This document shows, in pieces, positions 8,547 to 22,243 of a DNA stretch of 24,328 nucleotides (the first letter of the stretch is position 1; the number at the start of each line of letters is the position of its first letter). The translations under genes and the position numbers were made by a program. Under the pieces are notes generated by a model, which was not told where the DNA came from, ran no database searches, and saw only the letters and a program-made list of their open reading frames with translations. The DNA is taken from positions 1 through 24,328 of IMG/VR virus record IMGVR_UViG_3300023197_000041. The stretch is one strand, 5' to 3'. This DNA is from a virus (Duplodnaviria; Caudoviricetes).

Positions 8547-10292
8547 TTAACGCGGGTGACGGGGTTCGTAGTCTGTCTCTGTCCGTCTGTCAGAGGTTCC
8601 GAAATTGAAACTCGAAGTAGTCGTTCGGCTGTTCTGCGTCCCCCACGGGGACTCACTCGATGAGGCGGGCGTGGTCTGTCCGTCGTCACGCCGCATGATG
8701 CCTCGGAAGTCGTCCTCGTCGGTAACTTCCTCCGGGTCGGGTTCCGAAACGTTCTCTCGCTGTTCCGGCGTCGTCTGTCGCTCGGCGTTGAAGTTCGGCG
8801 GGTACGCGCCGAGCACGAGCGCCATCGCAAGGTCGTCCTTTCCGTCCGGGGCGTGCTTCTTCCCCGAGAACCGCGGCTTCGATGTTTCGTGCCGCTGTTC
8901 CTTGACGATGGCTTCGAGTTGGCCTTTGATGGAGGAGTCAGGGACCAACGTGATGAGGTCGTTGTGAAGGGCGTAGTTGAAGTCGCCCATCATCCGGGCT
9001 ATCTCCTCTTTGTCGGAGAAGTTGAACCCGTGAGCCTTCCGACCGATGCGTTTCTCGACCTCCTTCTGGAACCCCTTACCGGGGCCAGTCTTGTCGAGGA
9101 ACACATGGTCGATGCCCATGTTCTTCACGACGCAGTAGATGTAGTCTGCGACCGCGGAGGGGTCATCGGGCCGATGCCCGCTCAGGCCTATCGCCATCAA
9201 GTCCTGTCGGTCGAGCAGAGTGTGGAAACGGAGGTGGCGGTGTTTGCCCGAGTGCTCGAACACCGCGATGGCGGTGTCGTCTCGGTCGATGCCTATGTCC
9301 ACCCCCATCACCATCTGCCCGCCGTTCCGAGCGTGCGTGGCCGGGGACCAACCCGTGTATTTCCCGTGGAGTTCGCCGCCCTCGACGTGGGCCGCCCCAC
9401 GCTTCATCGCCTCGAAGATACCTTCCTTCGTGAAGAAGCGGTACTCGTCGGCGATGGGACGACACAGGTACTCCTGCGCGAACCCCTGCGGGTCCTGCGC
9501 TCGCTCGGCCTCGACCGTCGCCACGTCCATGTCGGGCCGAACCGGCTCCACGTCCTGCTCGTGGAGCGACTGCTCTATGTCAATCTCCTCGGGGTTCTTG
9601 AACGAGGGTTGTTTGACCGAGATGACGCCATCAGCGCCCGTCGGCGACCCCCGCTCGTGCGTGTCCAAGAACAGGTCGTTGCTGACCTTCGGCGTGGACA
9701 CTTGGAGCATCTGTCGGTGGCTCCCGAGGTTGATGAACGGCATGAAGGCCTGCATCGTGGCCTCTTGGTCCTCAAGGAAGGCCATCTCGTCCACGAAGAC
9801 CGTCTTCGCGGAGTCCATCCCACGGGCGGCGTCCGGGTCGCCCGAGAACGCCCGCACCGTGGCCCCGTTCGGGAATATCTTCTTGGCTTGGTTGTTCTTC
9901 TCAAGCCAGTCATCGGGGTTAATCCCGAGCCGGGAGTTTTCGAGCAGGTCCTCCATGTCCGAAAGCCGTTCCTCGGACTGGGACTGCGTGCGGGAAACGA
10001 CAGCAAAGTTCGCGTCCGGGGTGGTCAGTCCATCTATCGTGATGCATACCATGAAAATCCACGAGACACCGATGCGTCGCCCCTTGTAGACGTTGGTGAT
10101 GCTTTCGTCGCCGTAGAAGTAGGCGTGCATCAACTTCGGCTGGTAGGGATAGAACAGGTTGACCGGCTCCATTTCGCCAGTCTCCATGTCCCGAGTGCGG
10201 AACAGGTCTTCCGCAATCCGCTCTGGGTGTCCTTGCCAGCGTTCGAGGAGGGCTTCGGTATCCCCGTCCGCCTGCTCTGCTAACGCTTCCAT
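8547..10292 (-). CDS. terL: Terminase large subunit
   Basis: Walker A-like KGRRIGVS, ARG, Walker B VFVDE, motif III VSTP, FAQEYLC, and nuclease motifs GVDIG, DKTGPG and DDLAMA. Confidence 0.95.
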   Translation of the reverse strand: MEALAEQADGDTEALLERWQGHPERIAEDLFRTRDMETGEMEPVNLFYPYQPKLMHAYFYGDESITNVYKGRRIGVSWIFMVCITIDGLTTPDANFAVVSRTQSQSEERLSDMEDLLENSRLGINPDDWLEKNNQAKKIFPNGATVRAFSGDPDAARGMDSAKTVFVDEMAFLEDQEATMQAFMPFINLGSHRQMLQVSTPKVSNDLFLDTHERGSPTGADGVISVKQPSFKNPEEIDIEQSLHEQDVEPVRPDMDVATVEAERAQDPQGFAQEYLCRPIADEYRFFTKEGIFEAMKRGAAHVEGGELHGKYTGWSPATHARNGGQMVMGVDIGIDRDDTAIAVFEHSGKHRHLRFHTLLDRQDLMAIGLSGHRPDDPSAVADYIYCVVKNMGIDHVFLDKTGPGKGFQKEVEKRIGRKAHGFNFSDKEEIARMMGDFNYALHNDLITLVPDSSIKGQLEAIVKEQRHETSKPRFSGKKHAPDGKDDLAMALVLGAYPPNFNAERQTTPEQRENVSEPDPEEVTDEDDFRGIMRRDDGQTTPASSSESPWGTQNSRTTTSSFNFGTSDRRTETDYEPRHPR

Positions 10293-10295
10293 CTG

Positions 10296-10622
10296 TTAGA
10301 GGTCGTCCTTGATGTAGAGGAGGTCGAACTCGTCGTTCGGGAAGGTCTGTTCCTTGCCGCCGGGGTAGGTCACAACCCACTCGGCGAAGTAGAGGCCCGG
10401 TACGTTCGTGTCGCCGTCCTGCCAGTGATAGGCCGCCACGCCCTCCGAGGCGGTGACAATCTGCGCGTCACCTTCGACGCTGACCTCGTTCGAGCCGAGC
10501 GGCATCATCCGAAACGTGACGCTCTCGGCGTTCGAGAGGTCCTGCGCTTCACCGTTAACGGTGAACTGCGTCTGGAGAGGCGGAGATGTGTCTCCGGCCT
10601 TGAGTTCGTAGTCAGCGTCCAT
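10296..10622 (-). CDS. BppU-like (baseplate upper protein N-terminal domain) small structural protein
   Basis: LKAGDTSP...DLS...VTFRM...GVAAYHWQDGDT..PGLYFAEWVVTYPGGKEQTFPN matches the pattern I recognise for this family. Confidence 0.7.
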   Translation of the reverse strand: MDADYELKAGDTSPPLQTQFTVNGEAQDLSNAESVTFRMMPLGSNEVSVEGDAQIVTASEGVAAYHWQDGDTNVPGLYFAEWVVTYPGGKEQTFPNDEFDLLYIKDDL

Positions 10623-17666: not shown

Positions 17667-17836
17667 GGGTGGTATCCCCTAAGTTTAAGTAGCAGAGCGG
17701 CATGGCGCGTGCGCGATGCGCGACCCCCGGCTCGGAGGGTTCTTTTCCGATGAGGCTCCGTCGCACAGAACCCCCGCTACGGTTAGGCGCGCGCGCCCGC
17801 CGGGCCTTGGCCCCCCGCGCGTCGCCCGCGAAACCG

Positions 17837-17881: not shown

Positions 17882-18769
17882 TCCGACCGAACCGATGCCG
17901 CGACGACGATGGCAACGCTCGCAGAACAGGCCCGCGACCTCGCCCACGAGGGCGTGCTCGCGTTTGACGCAACCGGCGAAACCCTCGAAATCACCCTCGA
18001 AGGGGGGTTGAAAACCGAAATTCCGCTCGACGGCGACGCCCGCGACACGGGCGACACGGGCGACGCGCCCTCGGGCGAAAGCGCGGACACGGGCACGGAC
18101 GCCCGCGATGGCGACGCCGAGAAGGCCGAAACTGCCGGGTACAAGTGTTCTTGCGGCGAAACTTGGGCCGCGAACGTGGACCCGCAGGCCCCGCACGGCC
18201 ACACGGGCGGGACCACGGGCGAGCACACGCTCGTCCGCACGCCCGATGGCGAGGCCGAATCCGCCGAGAACGACGACGAGAAGGCTTCTGAAGGAGAATC
18301 CGCGAACGACGGCGACGCGGGCGACACGCCCGAGAGCGCACACGCCACGCTCGGCCTCGCCCGCGACGACGCGGCCCCCGCGAACCTGACGGAACGGGAC
18401 GCTGACACCCTTGAGAAGGCCGTTGAGGCAAGCGCGTACCGGTCTCGCACGGACGACGCGCTCGCCACGCAAGCGGGCAAGGCGCTCGCCAGCGAACGCG
18501 GCCTCGCCCGCGAAGCGAAGGCCGACTTCTTCAAGGCCCTTGGCTTCGGAATTTGCGGGGCTGAAGGGTGTGAACTTGCCGAAGCCGGGTTCGAGCGAAC
18601 GGGTTGCGGGCGGCACGAGGGCACGGACGCGGTTGCGGGCGAAGCGGGCGACGCGGGCGAAGCGGGCGACGCGGGCGACGGCGAAGGCCCGAGCGAAGCC
18701 GCGCTAACCCTGCTCAAACACGACGACAGCGTTTCTACCCTCGAAGAAGCCGAAGCGAAGGTCGCGTAA
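17879..18769 (+). CDS. Acidic hypothetical protein with two Cys/His motifs
   Basis: 296 aa from ATG 17879 (MSDRTD...). Motifs YKCSCGETW...H.H...H and C-x4-C-x11-C-x2-H; AG(E/D) tandem repeat at 18635-18685. Confidence 0.8.
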   Translation: MSDRTDAATTMATLAEQARDLAHEGVLAFDATGETLEITLEGGLKTEIPLDGDARDTGDTGDAPSGESADTGTDARDGDAEKAETAGYKCSCGETWAANVDPQAPHGHTGGTTGEHTLVRTPDGEAESAENDDEKASEGESANDGDAGDTPESAHATLGLARDDAAPANLTERDADTLEKAVEASAYRSRTDDALATQAGKALASERGLAREAKADFFKALGFGICGAEGCELAEAGFERTGCGRHEGTDAVAGEAGDAGEAGDAGDGEGPSEAALTLLKHDDSVSTLEEAEAKVA

Positions 18770-18943
18770 GCGGGCGAACGCCCGCGACACGCCCGCGATA
18801 GGCGGGCGACGCGACGCACCGCGCGACCCTCGCCCGCGAGGGGCGAGCGGGCAAGGGGCGTAGGCGCGAACCCCTGCGCCCCCTCGCCCGCCCTTCGCCC
18901 GCGAAGGGTCGAACCAACCCTTACGGACACGACCTTCCGACCT

Positions 18944-19249
18944 ATGAGCAACGACGCACGCGATACGACGGACGAATCGCCCGCGAACCCCCTTCCCGTG
19001 ACGGACGACGCGAACCCTTCAAGGGTGAAGGCCCTTGAGCGCGACCCCGCGAACGGCTCGCCCGAAGGGTTCGACCACCCCCTTGACCACTACCTCGCTA
19101 TCCACCGCGACGACCTCATCGCGGAGGCCGCGAGCCGCCGGACGAGCGACGAGCGAAGGGTCACGGAACCCTTGGCGAAGGCCCTTTGGGCGAGGGAGGC
19201 TTGGCTGGTCATCTACCCGGACGAGCGAAGCCCCTTCGCCCGCGAATAG
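18944..19249 (+). CDS. Hypothetical protein
   Basis: 101 aa, preceded by the GACAC...GACCT-ATG motif and followed by a terminator. Confidence 0.7.
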   Translation: MSNDARDTTDESPANPLPVTDDANPSRVKALERDPANGSPEGFDHPLDHYLAIHRDDLIAEAASRRTSDERRVTEPLAKALWAREAWLVIYPDERSPFARE

Positions 19250-19276
19250 CGAACGACCGGCGAACCCTTCCGAAGA

Positions 19277-19304
19277 CCCCCTTCCAAGGGGGCTACTTTT
19301 TTTT
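19277..19304 (+). terminator. Hairpin plus T8 terminator
   Basis: CCCCCTT-CC-AAGGGGG followed by CTAC-TTTTTTTT; the only long T-tract I saw in the window. Confidence 0.75.
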
Positions 19305-19979
19305 GCGCGTGCGCGAGGGCGAGCGACCGCCCGAGCGACCGCTCGATGACGCCCGCGACGCACCCTTGAGCACCCTTGCGAAGGGGGTCAGACCCTTCTG
19401 GAAGGGGGCAACGCGCGGGCGAAGCGCGAGCGAACGCCTTCGAGCCGCGCGAGCGGCCTCGAAGGGTGCGCGGGGCCTTGCGAAGGGGCTTGCGCGGGCG
19501 ACCTCATCGCGCTGACTCCCGCGAGCGACCGCTCCAGCGAGCCTTCGCAAGGGTTCGGGCGGGGGCAAAGGCCCTTCGGGGGCGGCCCATCGCGGGCGAT
19601 TGCTTCGCGGGCCTCTATCGCCGGGCCGGGGGTCGCCGGGGGAAGGCCCCGCGCGTCGCGCCCCCTCCGCGCGTCCCGGTCCAAACGCGCGCCTCCGCGG
19701 CCCGGTTCTGTTCAGCAGTCTCAGCGCCGAAAACTTACGGAACCCCACCGCGGTTGCCGACACCGAAAGCGGTTCGGGGGGTAGAGTTCCAGATACGGCA
19801 GTCTGTGGCAGTCTCAAGGCATCGAGCCGCCGGATTCTTGACGCTGAGTTTAAGTAGGGGGCAGAGAAATTTACAGGGTCGGAGAGAGTTGAATTAACGG
19901 AGTTCTGCGGTGTTCCCCGGAACCCCGATTCCGGCGGTAGAGCCCCGTTAGCCTGTCGAAATCAACGGCGTTCAGAGTT

Positions 19980-20021
19980 TCGACAGATTTAAGTAAAGTC
20001 GGGGCGTTAGCACTATCTGTG
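19980..20021 (+). promoter_or_regulatory. Viral promoter motif, copy 2 (no ATG downstream)
   Basis: TCGACAGA-TTTAA-GTAAAG-TCGGGGCGTTAG-CACTATCTGTG, colinear with copy 1 and sharing an identical 12-mer. Confidence 0.75.
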
Positions 20022-21016
20022 CTCGCTCGCCCCGCGCCGGGCGGCGGACACACGGACCCACACACGCGGTCTGTTGTGTTCCGCCGCTCCGGCCCCCACA
20101 CGTAATATGTGGGGTCAAGGGGGCCTTCGAGCACCCTTCGGCTGGTTAAGGCCGGAGGGGATGTACGCGATGGTCTGAACCCGGTAGGCCTTCCCAAGGG
20201 TCGTAAGGGGGATGACTCAAAGCGGGACGGTTCGACAAGTCGCGGGGGACACCCGCGATGTGCCACGAGCCGCCGAATATCTAAAGGGGTCGCCGAAGGC
20301 TGGTTAAGGCCGAAGGCCCACGGACGCCCCGAGTTCGCACCCGAAACCCATCGCGTGAAGTTAGCCTTGTTGCGGCCTCCGGGCAGACACCGCAAACGAC
20401 GCGCCCAATCTTGGCCCTCGCGGGTGAAGGACCGATGACGCGGGCGATATGCAGAGGTTCCCTCGGAAGGGTTGAAAGCAGAGCGTCGCGGAAGGTGCGG
20501 GAGCGATGCGGCCCGCTAAGGGTGGAACACCGGCCCCTTCGGGTAATCCGTCCGAAACCCTCACGGGTGAACGACGCCTCGAAGGGTGGGAACCGGGGAA
20601 GGTGGTTCGCGTGGAGCGAAGGCAATCGTCCACGCGATAGCCGACGGAGGCCGACCGACAACTGATTGCCCACGATGGCACCGGGGTAGAGCCAAAGACT
20701 GCCACGGACCTGTCACCCATCGAAGGCCTTCGCGGAGGCACCGCGAGGTACGACCGGCGAAGTGCTGGAGGGTAGACACAAGCGAGTAACCCGGTTAAGG
20801 GTCGAAAGCACACAAATGGCGCAACGGCGCGAACGAAGGGTCAGGTATCAGGCCCAAGTGCTCACGGCGATGAAGCCCCGCACCCTTTCCGGCAGGATTT
20901 TCGCCGGGGCGGTCGGTAAGGGCGAGGGTCGCATCGAGCGGCCTTCGCCCCCGACCCCGCTTCGTCCGAGCGGCCAACAATCGGACGCGAAGCCCACGCC
21001 TGCGATAGTGGCGGGA
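20019..21016 (+). ncRNA. Candidate large (~1 kb) structured non-coding RNA or giant 5' leader
   Basis: No acidic ORF; starts at promoter copy 2; near-continuous helices with G-U pairs on the plus strand, long-range pairings and repeated GGUUAA loops (see findings). Confidence 0.6.
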
Positions 21017-21030
21017 CACAACTACGACCT

Positions 21031-22089
21031 ATGAGCGACGCTTTCGGACTCAACGAGACGGTTTCGGTCGAATCGGACACGAACAACGCTGGCGACTCGG
21101 ACGCGGGCGATGACGCGGGCGATGTGACGCCCGATTACGAGGCGAACGAGACGACGGACTACTACCTTGCCTTCGGTGACACGAAGGCCGCAACGGACAC
21201 CATCGCGGAAGACTCGGGAATCACGCTTCCGAACGTCAACACCTACGAGAACGACCTTTCGGACCTCCCTCGCCTGCTCGGCGAGCACAGCGAGGCTCAC
21301 CCGCAGGCGAAGTTGTGGCTGGCCTACGCGCTGGCGAAGTCCTCCTTCGGCGACCGGCAGGCCAGCGAGAACCCGAAGATGCTCGGCGCGGGCCTCGATA
21401 CCTCGGGCGATTCGGAGGCGTACCCGAAGCCCCTCCCGAACGACCCCGAGGCGGAGCAGTTCCGCTACGCCGATGTGTACCGGAGTCTTCCCACCATCGA
21501 GACGGAAGGCCTCAAGCCGGGCGAGCGGGAAAAGTTCGCGGAGATGGACGTGGAGCCGGACACCCTCGGCTTCCGCGAGGAGGAAGGCCCCCACATCCCG
21601 GTCATCGGCGGCGAGCGGCTTCCCATCGCGGCGGCTTCGGACGAGGACGTGCAGGACGCGATTGACCTGCTGACCGAACTCCCCGACGAGCCTTCGACCG
21701 CTGACCCCATCGAGGGCGACAGCGACGAGGGCGACGACACGAGCGATGCCTCGGGCGACGACGACGGCGAGACGGTCTTCTGCCTCCGTGAGTCTTCGGA
21801 CGGAACCCCCTGCCGGAAGGAGGTCGATTCGCCCGACGAAGCGTGCAACTGGCACGATGCTGGCGACCCCCGCCTCACCGACTACGAGGAAGGGGGCGAC
21901 ACGGACGAGGCTTCGGACGAGGACGTGCAGGAAGCCGTCGAGGACGATGCCGATGAGGCCTCGCAGGACACCGACGCGAACAACGGCGGCGAGATGCCCG
22001 AAGCCGTCCAGACCCTCCTCGCCCACGACGAGGAGTGCGCGACCATCGAGGACGCGAAGCAGAAGGCCAAGGAGCACGGTCTGGTCTAA
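21031..22089 (+). CDS. Highly acidic hypothetical protein with a C-x9-C-x10-C-x2-H finger
   Basis: 352 aa containing FCLRESSDGTPCRKEVDSPDEACNWH; 24-bp internal direct repeat at 21633-21656 and 21909-21932 (ASDEDVQ). Confidence 0.85.
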   Translation: MSDAFGLNETVSVESDTNNAGDSDAGDDAGDVTPDYEANETTDYYLAFGDTKAATDTIAEDSGITLPNVNTYENDLSDLPRLLGEHSEAHPQAKLWLAYALAKSSFGDRQASENPKMLGAGLDTSGDSEAYPKPLPNDPEAEQFRYADVYRSLPTIETEGLKPGEREKFAEMDVEPDTLGFREEEGPHIPVIGGERLPIAAASDEDVQDAIDLLTELPDEPSTADPIEGDSDEGDDTSDASGDDDGETVFCLRESSDGTPCRKEVDSPDEACNWHDAGDPRLTDYEEGGDTDEASDEDVQEAVEDDADEASQDTDANNGGEMPEAVQTLLAHDEECATIEDAKQKAKEHGLV

Positions 22090-22243
22090 GGCCGCAAAGA
22101 CTCGAATCGGGTAGCCTCGAATCTTAGCCCGTAGGGGTCACGCCCCCTCCGGTTCACGACCGGAACGGGCCATCGAGGGCGAGGTGCCGGGGACGCCTCG
22201 CCTGCGGTTCCCTTCCCCGAATCCCAACCGGGCTGACCACCCT

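Follow-up and report, generated by a model that had tools for sequence, protein, structure and literature searches.

Positions 20019..21030 on the plus strand of the window almost certainly encode a functional folded RNA; by the window we mean the whole 24,328-base stretch of DNA analyzed, a virus record that is 32% complete. Homologues, covariation, frame-breaking indels, a TATA box at a conserved position and the lack of an Rfam match all bear out the original prediction of an undescribed large structured viral RNA, and these sequence comparisons indicate that the class is real. Large structured RNAs are rare, and for the phage-borne GOLLD and ROOL, which set a precedent for RNAs of such size, the text available to us of bioRxiv 2024.12.08.627333 describes no function. 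The RNA reported here represents a separate class, with covarying tertiary contacts, in archaeal viruses, and would show how RNA of kilobase length folds in high salt. It is experimentally accessible, being carried by cultured viruses whose hosts are known (8 GenBank records), and since it lies at the genome's early end, the function of giant viral RNAs becomes easier to test.

Head genes place the window virus as a probable relative of Hafunaviridae. Its capsid protein shares 52% identity with the capsids of HSTV-2, HRTV-7 and HCTV-6, and PHROGs matches in the window include the portal, the protease and both terminase subunits. The RNA region lies on the plus strand and is oriented divergently from the head module. 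At 19277..19302 (+), a hairpin followed by a T-run likely ends the upstream transcription unit and provides a local example of how a terminator looks. About 30 nt upstream of the RNA, at 19981..19995 (+), is a predicted archaeal promoter composed of a CGACAG box and then a TTTAAGTA TATA box; it resembles the ordinary BRE/TATA type, which the host polymerase likely reads. The TATA box, at 19988, recurs at 17684 and at 19849, the latter 139 nt ahead of the RNA promoter. A TATA-like box, picked by regular expression, was found about 30 nt upstream of all 14 full-length copies of the RNA. Further upstream, the segment 18751-19500, which overlaps ORF 18944 and the terminator, is GC-rich and contains many short inverted repeats.

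The first lead to homologues was a weak blastn match (E 8e-3) just 5' of HSTV-2 gene 102, itself a homologue of ORF 21031, the gene that follows the RNA in the window. Alignment of the window with HSTV-2 revealed shared motif islands in conserved order, preceded by the same promoter. Motif scans, four on IMG/VR and one on metagenomes, from which chance matches were removed by an nhmmer profile, returned 6/18, 8/13, 7/15, 8/16 and 8/111 true members among their raw matches, the last scan adding no further member. Their combined yield was 8 contigs from IMG/VR, HSTV-2 among them, and 7 from metagenomes; one of the latter scored identically to an IMG/VR copy. After exclusion of L030, L041, L048 and L036 as partial or duplicate, the set comprised 14 full-length copies, window included, in 9 lineages, among them the cultured mincapviruses HSTV-2, HRTV-11 and HCTV-6. 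Counted from the predicted start up to the last base ahead of the next AUG, the homologues span 1013-1254 nt. Identity between lineages was 45-68%, except for one pair at 78%; 143 alignment columns were invariant over the 9 lineages, and most invariant bases lay ~150-800 nt upstream of the AUG.

The HSTV-2 region was present in 8 GenBank records, its copy lying 2.3-3.4 kb from the end of the record, and a sequencing-run search for that copy listed no holder of the RNA. A covariance model of the core gave one strong match in each of 8 of the 14 records searched and no match in HF2, HRTV-24, HCTV-7, HRTV-25, HRTV-27 or a 7-kb fragment; this last contig was the one retrieved by a capsid query of IMG/VR, and it is without the RNA region. 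Each carrier genome has one copy. One motif pattern scanned against 185,579 prokaryote genomes produced a single chance match and no cellular copy. In a terminase tree of 13 viruses, rooted at the midpoint only, the 8 carriers formed one clade (100/99) beside the haloferacalesviruses. The tree of the RNA partly conflicts with the terminase tree, which suggests module exchange.

The region does not behave as coding sequence. As originally noted, it holds no halophile-like ORF: the only plus-strand ATG ORFs of at least 40 aa encode 76 and 44 aa, with a D+E fraction of 0.09-0.11 as opposed to 0.27 in ORF 21031. Conservation of a reading frame among homologues, an outcome that would have spoken against an RNA, was contradicted by the indels, which break frames: lengths that are not a multiple of 3 accounted for 14/15, 1/1, 6/6, 8/10, 2/3 and 51/65 of the indels in 6 close pairs. 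Translated matches between lineages were short and spread over many frames and both strands. The small ORFs annotated over the RNA differ among HSTV-2 (gene 103), HRTV-11 (gp105-107) and HCTV-6 (gp102-104), the mincapvirus records L002-L004, and are probably not real genes.

For the structural model, 59 base pairs were named on a MAFFT alignment of 11/14 copies that was left unedited; helices P1 and P2 were left out of this count because MAFFT misaligns them. Bearing in mind that the pairs were picked by eye in the very sequences tested, that 28 of them never vary and that kinship inflates the shuffle test, 95.7% of 645 cells were paired, 25/59 pairs changed on both sides, and 0/500 shuffles reached these pairing and two-sided values. 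Slid controls paired at 30-47%. For further pair types the alignment did not exceed the shuffles, 47/500 of which reached its count. Run without the 59-pair model, RNAalifold recovered P5, P7, stem 1 of the H-type pseudoknot, Pb and Pc. The excess of G-U pairs noted originally on the plus strand was also observed here, with 30 G-U/U-G against 9 A-C/C-A cells in the 59 pairs over 9 lineages, a count that is biased by the choice of the plus strand. On that strand one pair is an invariant G-U (11/11) and another a U-G in 9/11, and GNRA-type loops occur in the RNA.

Folding energy was a poor guide. The whole region gave z-scores of -3.35 on the plus and -3.06 on the minus strand (20 shuffles per strand), so the strand asymmetry that had been proposed as a check was slight. 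The core, 20251-20750, folded no better than shuffled sequence (250-nt tiles, z +1.3 and -1.1), whereas tiles of the same size in the upstream DNA at 18751-19500 outfolded their shuffles (z -3.3 to -5.6). The folding z-score was therefore dropped as a criterion. The decisive evidence for a folded RNA is covariation, not thermodynamics.

The RNA begins with a 5' domain (20019..20134, +) whose sequence is not conserved between lineages. Its first bases, GUGCUCG (20019-25), were correctly predicted to pair with CGAGCAC (20128-34) and to enclose two hairpins, and this segment has a predicted folding energy of -76.1 kcal/mol; only some lineages fold a comparable closing helix near the 5' terminus. 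Helix P2 (20164..20357, +) closes the first core domain, and here the long-range match already proposed, UACGCGAUGG at 20164-73 with CCAUCGCGUG at 20348-57, forms 10 bp in the window. The equivalent helix is the best duplex in the window, L002, L040 and L035, and not in the other 5 of the 9 lineages. Within P2 lies a conserved junction (20224..20342, +) made of three helices and near-invariant strands. Pa (20224-26/20340-42) barely varies, while two-sided changes affect 3/6 pairs of Pb (20229-34/20266-71) and 4/4 pairs of Pc (20286-89/20327-30). The alignment shows the near-invariant strand GCCGAAUAUCUAAA at 20272-85 and a second junction strand, AGUUCG, at 20332-37.

An internal loop presents the kissing strand GUGCCA (20260..20265, +), the complement of the loop UGGCAC (20676-81) of a hairpin at 20673..20683 (+). 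Located by anchors rather than by alignment, this 6-mer match was perfect in 14/14 copies, with the partner 416-527 nt upstream, and it occurred as GUGCCA/UGGCAC, GUGGUA/UACCAC, GUGGUG/CACCAC and GUGUCA/UGACAC. This predicted kissing contact is the clearest signal in the data, and it could form within one molecule or between molecules. The segment 20260-20281 seems to resemble the 530-loop region of 16S rRNA, probably by chance; the Rfam rRNA models had no match there, and other lineages depart from the likeness. In the window the word GGUUAAG occurs three times at hairpin loops (~20143, 20302 and 20790), and other lineages repeat loop words of their own, such as GAGUUCC five times in L027. 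These words are possible protein-binding or RNA-RNA contact sites.

Downstream of the junction, the long-range helix P3 (20369..20659, +; 20369-81/20645-59) encloses a variable domain; 100% of the cells in its 13 pairs are paired, and 2 pairs show two-sided changes. Helix P4 (20701..20820, +), GCCA with UGGC, encloses a second variable domain and exchanges an A-U for a G-C pair in HSTV-2 and HRTV-11 only. Helix P5 (20826..20862, +) opens with the invariant G-U pair, and hairpin P7 (20911..20956, +) carries a conserved 3-nt UNA bulge. An H-type pseudoknot with an A-rich loop follows at 20957..20986 (+), ~45 nt ahead of the AUG. Its stem 1 (20957-60/20970-73) has two-sided changes in 3/4 pairs and is 95.5% paired; for stem 2 (20964-68/20982-86) the values are 4/5 and 84.3%. 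The last hairpin (20993..21015, +), folded in 8/9 lineages, leaves a 15-nt A/C-rich spacer to the AUG in the window. The sequence GAUGA near 20869 was considered as part of a hammerhead or a group II domain V and rejected, as inspection by eye did not reveal the remaining core elements and Rfam gave no match.

The fold originally proposed was right on the sequences that it named and lacked both pseudoknots and the main long-range helices. Among its local stems, those at 20134-59, 20240-58, 20607-37, 20911-56 and 20959-93 are strong and four others are weak or displaced. The stem at 20198-218 is weak (-5.5), 20762-811 does not fold as a single stem, 20865-906 reaches -12.2, and 20370-95 (-8.0) competes with the covarying P3 (-20.6). 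Several of these stems are probably alternatives. The hairpin at 20370-95 holds the 5' strand of P3, and such a weaker local hairpin is found in 9/9 lineages, at -8 to -13 versus -18 to -21 kcal/mol for P3. A rival partner for that P3 strand is the invariant strand at 20273-81, which leaves the core with more than one possible fold; of these pairings, P3 alone shows covariation. In 6/9 lineages a sequence further upstream could also engage the 5' strand of P7, through 5-7 bp (3 bp in the window), a match whose probability by chance in each case is ~0.12 at 5 bp and 0.03 at 6 bp. Such alternatives may represent intermediates of folding, a switch, or exchange of strands between molecules.

The RNA is followed by an acidic 352-aa ORF (21031..22089, +), a homologue of HSTV-2 gp102 (tblastn E 5e-6) that corresponds to phrog_32210. 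The protein matched no Pfam family, its structural model (pLDDT 54.6) had no Atlas match with a TM above 0.3, and as a query against IMG/VR it found no relative; the alignment of the homologous proteins is too divergent to serve as a search query. At residues ~247-277 it has a Cys3-His cluster where its homologues have a helical C-terminal region, from sequence a possible swap of nucleic-acid-binding modules. A gp102-like ORF lies directly 3' of the RNA in 12/14 copies. In L028 the contig end cuts off the region after the RNA, and in L024 the RNA is intact and the gp102 homologue lies 1.2 kb off, with other small ORFs between. Judged by eye, the spacer from the last hairpin to the AUG is 7-15 nt and A/C-rich in 9/9 lineages; short A/C-rich spacers are also found 5' of other window genes. 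No terminator was found before ORF 21031, though the upstream unit has one. Runs of five or more T are absent from every copy of the RNA, and the primary transcript therefore probably reads through into the ORF that follows. After the stop codon of ORF 21031, positions 22127-22170 contain a small tRNA-like element in which a stem closes off a short arm and a hairpin similar to a T-arm, the 7-nt loop of the hairpin reading UUCACGA. Similar elements were seen by eye in HSTV-2, L027, L035 and perhaps L031, and the element may be a processing signal.

Related viruses offer a view of the same slot. In HF2 (L069), the 1.4 kb at positions 550-1969 follow a TATA box and carry no annotation; this region, which other haloferacalesviruses share, may be another giant RNA and was matched, with near-invariant islands, in 41 phage records. 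Like the RNA described here, it has a similar promoter near the early end and lies directly 5' of the first ORF; unlike it, it is followed by an ORF that is not a detectable gp102 homologue, and the two regions have no similarity by nhmmer or the covariance model. In HRTV-25 the slot holds a ~0.9-kb structured-looking stretch that runs from a TATA box to the first large ORF and matches HRTV-25 itself only. Its 3' end is a type II hammerhead (L068:10523-10596, minus strand; 42.3 bits, cut-off 37). This hammerhead may be unrelated to the slot, since hammerheads occur elsewhere in such genomes: HF2 has one at 10292-10359, and hammerhead-like sequences below the cut-off (31 bits) were found in the carrier genomes G001:55419-55485 and G002:64925-64991. 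The last 7.6 kb of HRTV-27 contain no annotation gap of comparable size. For HF1/HF2, PMC3088659 places a hammerhead 13 nt upstream of a start codon and maps a 5' end at most 3 nt from the cut site. The corresponding genome end of HF2 is transcribed first, and the virus depends on the host polymerase, according to the portions available to us of PMC7230728 and PMC8707807. By analogy with HF2, we infer early transcription of the RNA by the host polymerase in the window clade. An HF2 RT-PCR product is described in section 3.4 of PMC8707807, as far as that text is accessible, as starting at the first CDS; it concerns a different RNA and is weak evidence here.

We favor, at roughly even confidence, an immediate-early folded RNA of a new class, similar to GOLLD and ROOL, that would be released by processing and act in trans as a particle. 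Conservation with compensating changes in nine lineages implies that a compact, doubly pseudoknotted fold is likely. The host polymerase would make one transcript, the RNA first and then ORF 21031; local hairpins would occupy the 5' strand of P3 pending transcription of its partner, after which the kissing contact would lock both halves. A cut near the last hairpin would free the RNA and leave a short-leader mRNA, the pseudoknot and hairpin would shield the 3' end of the freed RNA, and the invariant unpaired strands would form a surface for a host partner, at a guess most likely the translation apparatus or a defense protein, by analogy with GOLLD. Such a released RNA agrees with the covariation, the kissing 6-mer, the frame-breaking indels, the placement of the invariant bases far from the AUG and the intact RNA of L024, where the gp102 homologue is displaced. 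Processing of early HF1/HF2 transcripts (PMC3088659, in the part accessible to us), the HRTV-25 hammerhead in the same slot and the size of GOLLD and ROOL provide precedents. However, the missing terminator and T-runs count against this reading, and the copies scanned contain no known ribozyme that could account for the releasing cut. The constant 7-15 nt spacer would fit a leader equally well. The original prediction had named a noncoding RNA or a giant leader of ORF 21031; a structured RNA is upheld, while on the choice between the two the lack of a terminator before ORF 21031 is set against the other ORFs that come next in L024. A giant cis-acting leader, IRES-like or a switch, that would remain part of the first early mRNA and recruit host ribosomes to the AUG right after the 3' pseudoknot and hairpin is a serious but improbable alternative. 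The region has the sequence properties of an IRES-like leader, being structured, with a pseudoknot adjoining the start codon and no terminator between; the short spacer, the gp102-like ORF directly after most copies and the alternative P7 pairings, which could form a switch in 6/9 lineages, are in keeping with it. Yet the following ORF is exchanged in L024, short A/C-rich spacers precede other window genes too, and a length of 1.0-1.25 kb with a conserved core far from the AUG exceeds what prokaryotic leaders known to us need.

The 143 invariant columns, many in strands without a covarying partner, also bring to mind a catalytic RNA of a new class, the junction strands being an active site that cuts or modifies the RNA itself or host RNA. 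Two pseudoknots and mutually exclusive helices, as found in large ribozymes, would suit such an activity, but there is no Rfam ribozyme or intron match, no gene is interrupted, and GOLLD and ROOL are equally ornate with no function described in the accessible source; we consider catalysis quite unlikely. The position of the HSTV-2 copy near the record end and the similar z-scores of both strands would be compatible with a single-stranded DNA structure or a replication primer near the genome terminus. This is very unlikely given the invariant G-U (11/11) and U-G (9/11) pairs of the plus strand, the GNRA-type loops and pseudoknots, and boundaries set 30 nt behind a TATA box and at an AUG. Readings as small proteins, or as GC-rich intergenic DNA folding by chance, to which the GenBank ORFs in HSTV-2, HRTV-11 and HCTV-6, the short translated matches and the shuffle-like core tiles might point, are scarcely credible beside the frame-breaking indels, the scatter of those matches over frames and strands, the non-acidic ORFs and the covariation. 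We tentatively propose, while thinking it rather doubtful, that this is the first giant ornate RNA of an archaeal virus, an immediate-early machine (a new ribozyme or a particle self-assembling in molar salt) that would seize host translation, and that the same slot in sister genera would hold unrelated giant RNAs.

Comparison with known RNAs gave no class assignment. Rfam, at its cut-off and at E up to 10, returned nothing real in the window, and on 10 other loci (8 homologue loci among them) the HRTV-25 hammerhead only; the scan that detected this hammerhead found no known small self-cleaving ribozyme inside the RNA in the copies scanned. ARAGORN reported 0 tRNA genes and no tmRNA in the window and the 8 homologue loci (3.5-6.9 kb). 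The original reading that RNase P, tRNA and group II intron hallmarks are missing therefore holds. A literature search, mostly excluding subscription papers and supplements, found no description of the RNA class; PMC8651126 contains 0 occurrences of ncRNA terms, and PMC10544981, in its accessible part, concerns another element and was discarded as a prior description.

The dicistrovirus intergenic IRES likewise places a pseudoknotted domain close 5' of a coding region, but the RNA here is much longer, its pseudoknot is followed by a hairpin and the AUG, and it has no Rfam sequence match. With the large ribozymes (RNase P RNA and group I/II introns) and tmRNA it shares size, junctions of invariant strands and a long-range loop-loop contact, and differs in having no Rfam or ARAGORN match and in interrupting no gene: unlike a group I or group II intron, it has a promoter on one side and an intact ORF on the other. 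ROOL (RF03087) is likewise phage-borne, large and rich in pseudoknots, with long-range covarying contacts; the RNA here has no RF03087 match, is nearly twice as long and lies in no tRNA island. GOLLD and ROOL, which self-assemble into RNA-only cages, commonly lie next to tRNA genes. GOLLD (RF02032), as described in the accessible sources, resembles it in being virus-encoded, over 800 nt and ornate, with kissing loops, pseudoknots and a variable 5' part, whereas the RNA here fails the RF02032 model in the window and the 8 homologue loci, has no nearby tRNA, is archaeal-viral and enters an ORF with no terminator. Our best guess, by analogy with these and with the phage K lncRNAs (PMC9241854), is that this RNA would act like GOLLD and ROOL; with no match to either model and no tRNA context, it belongs to neither.
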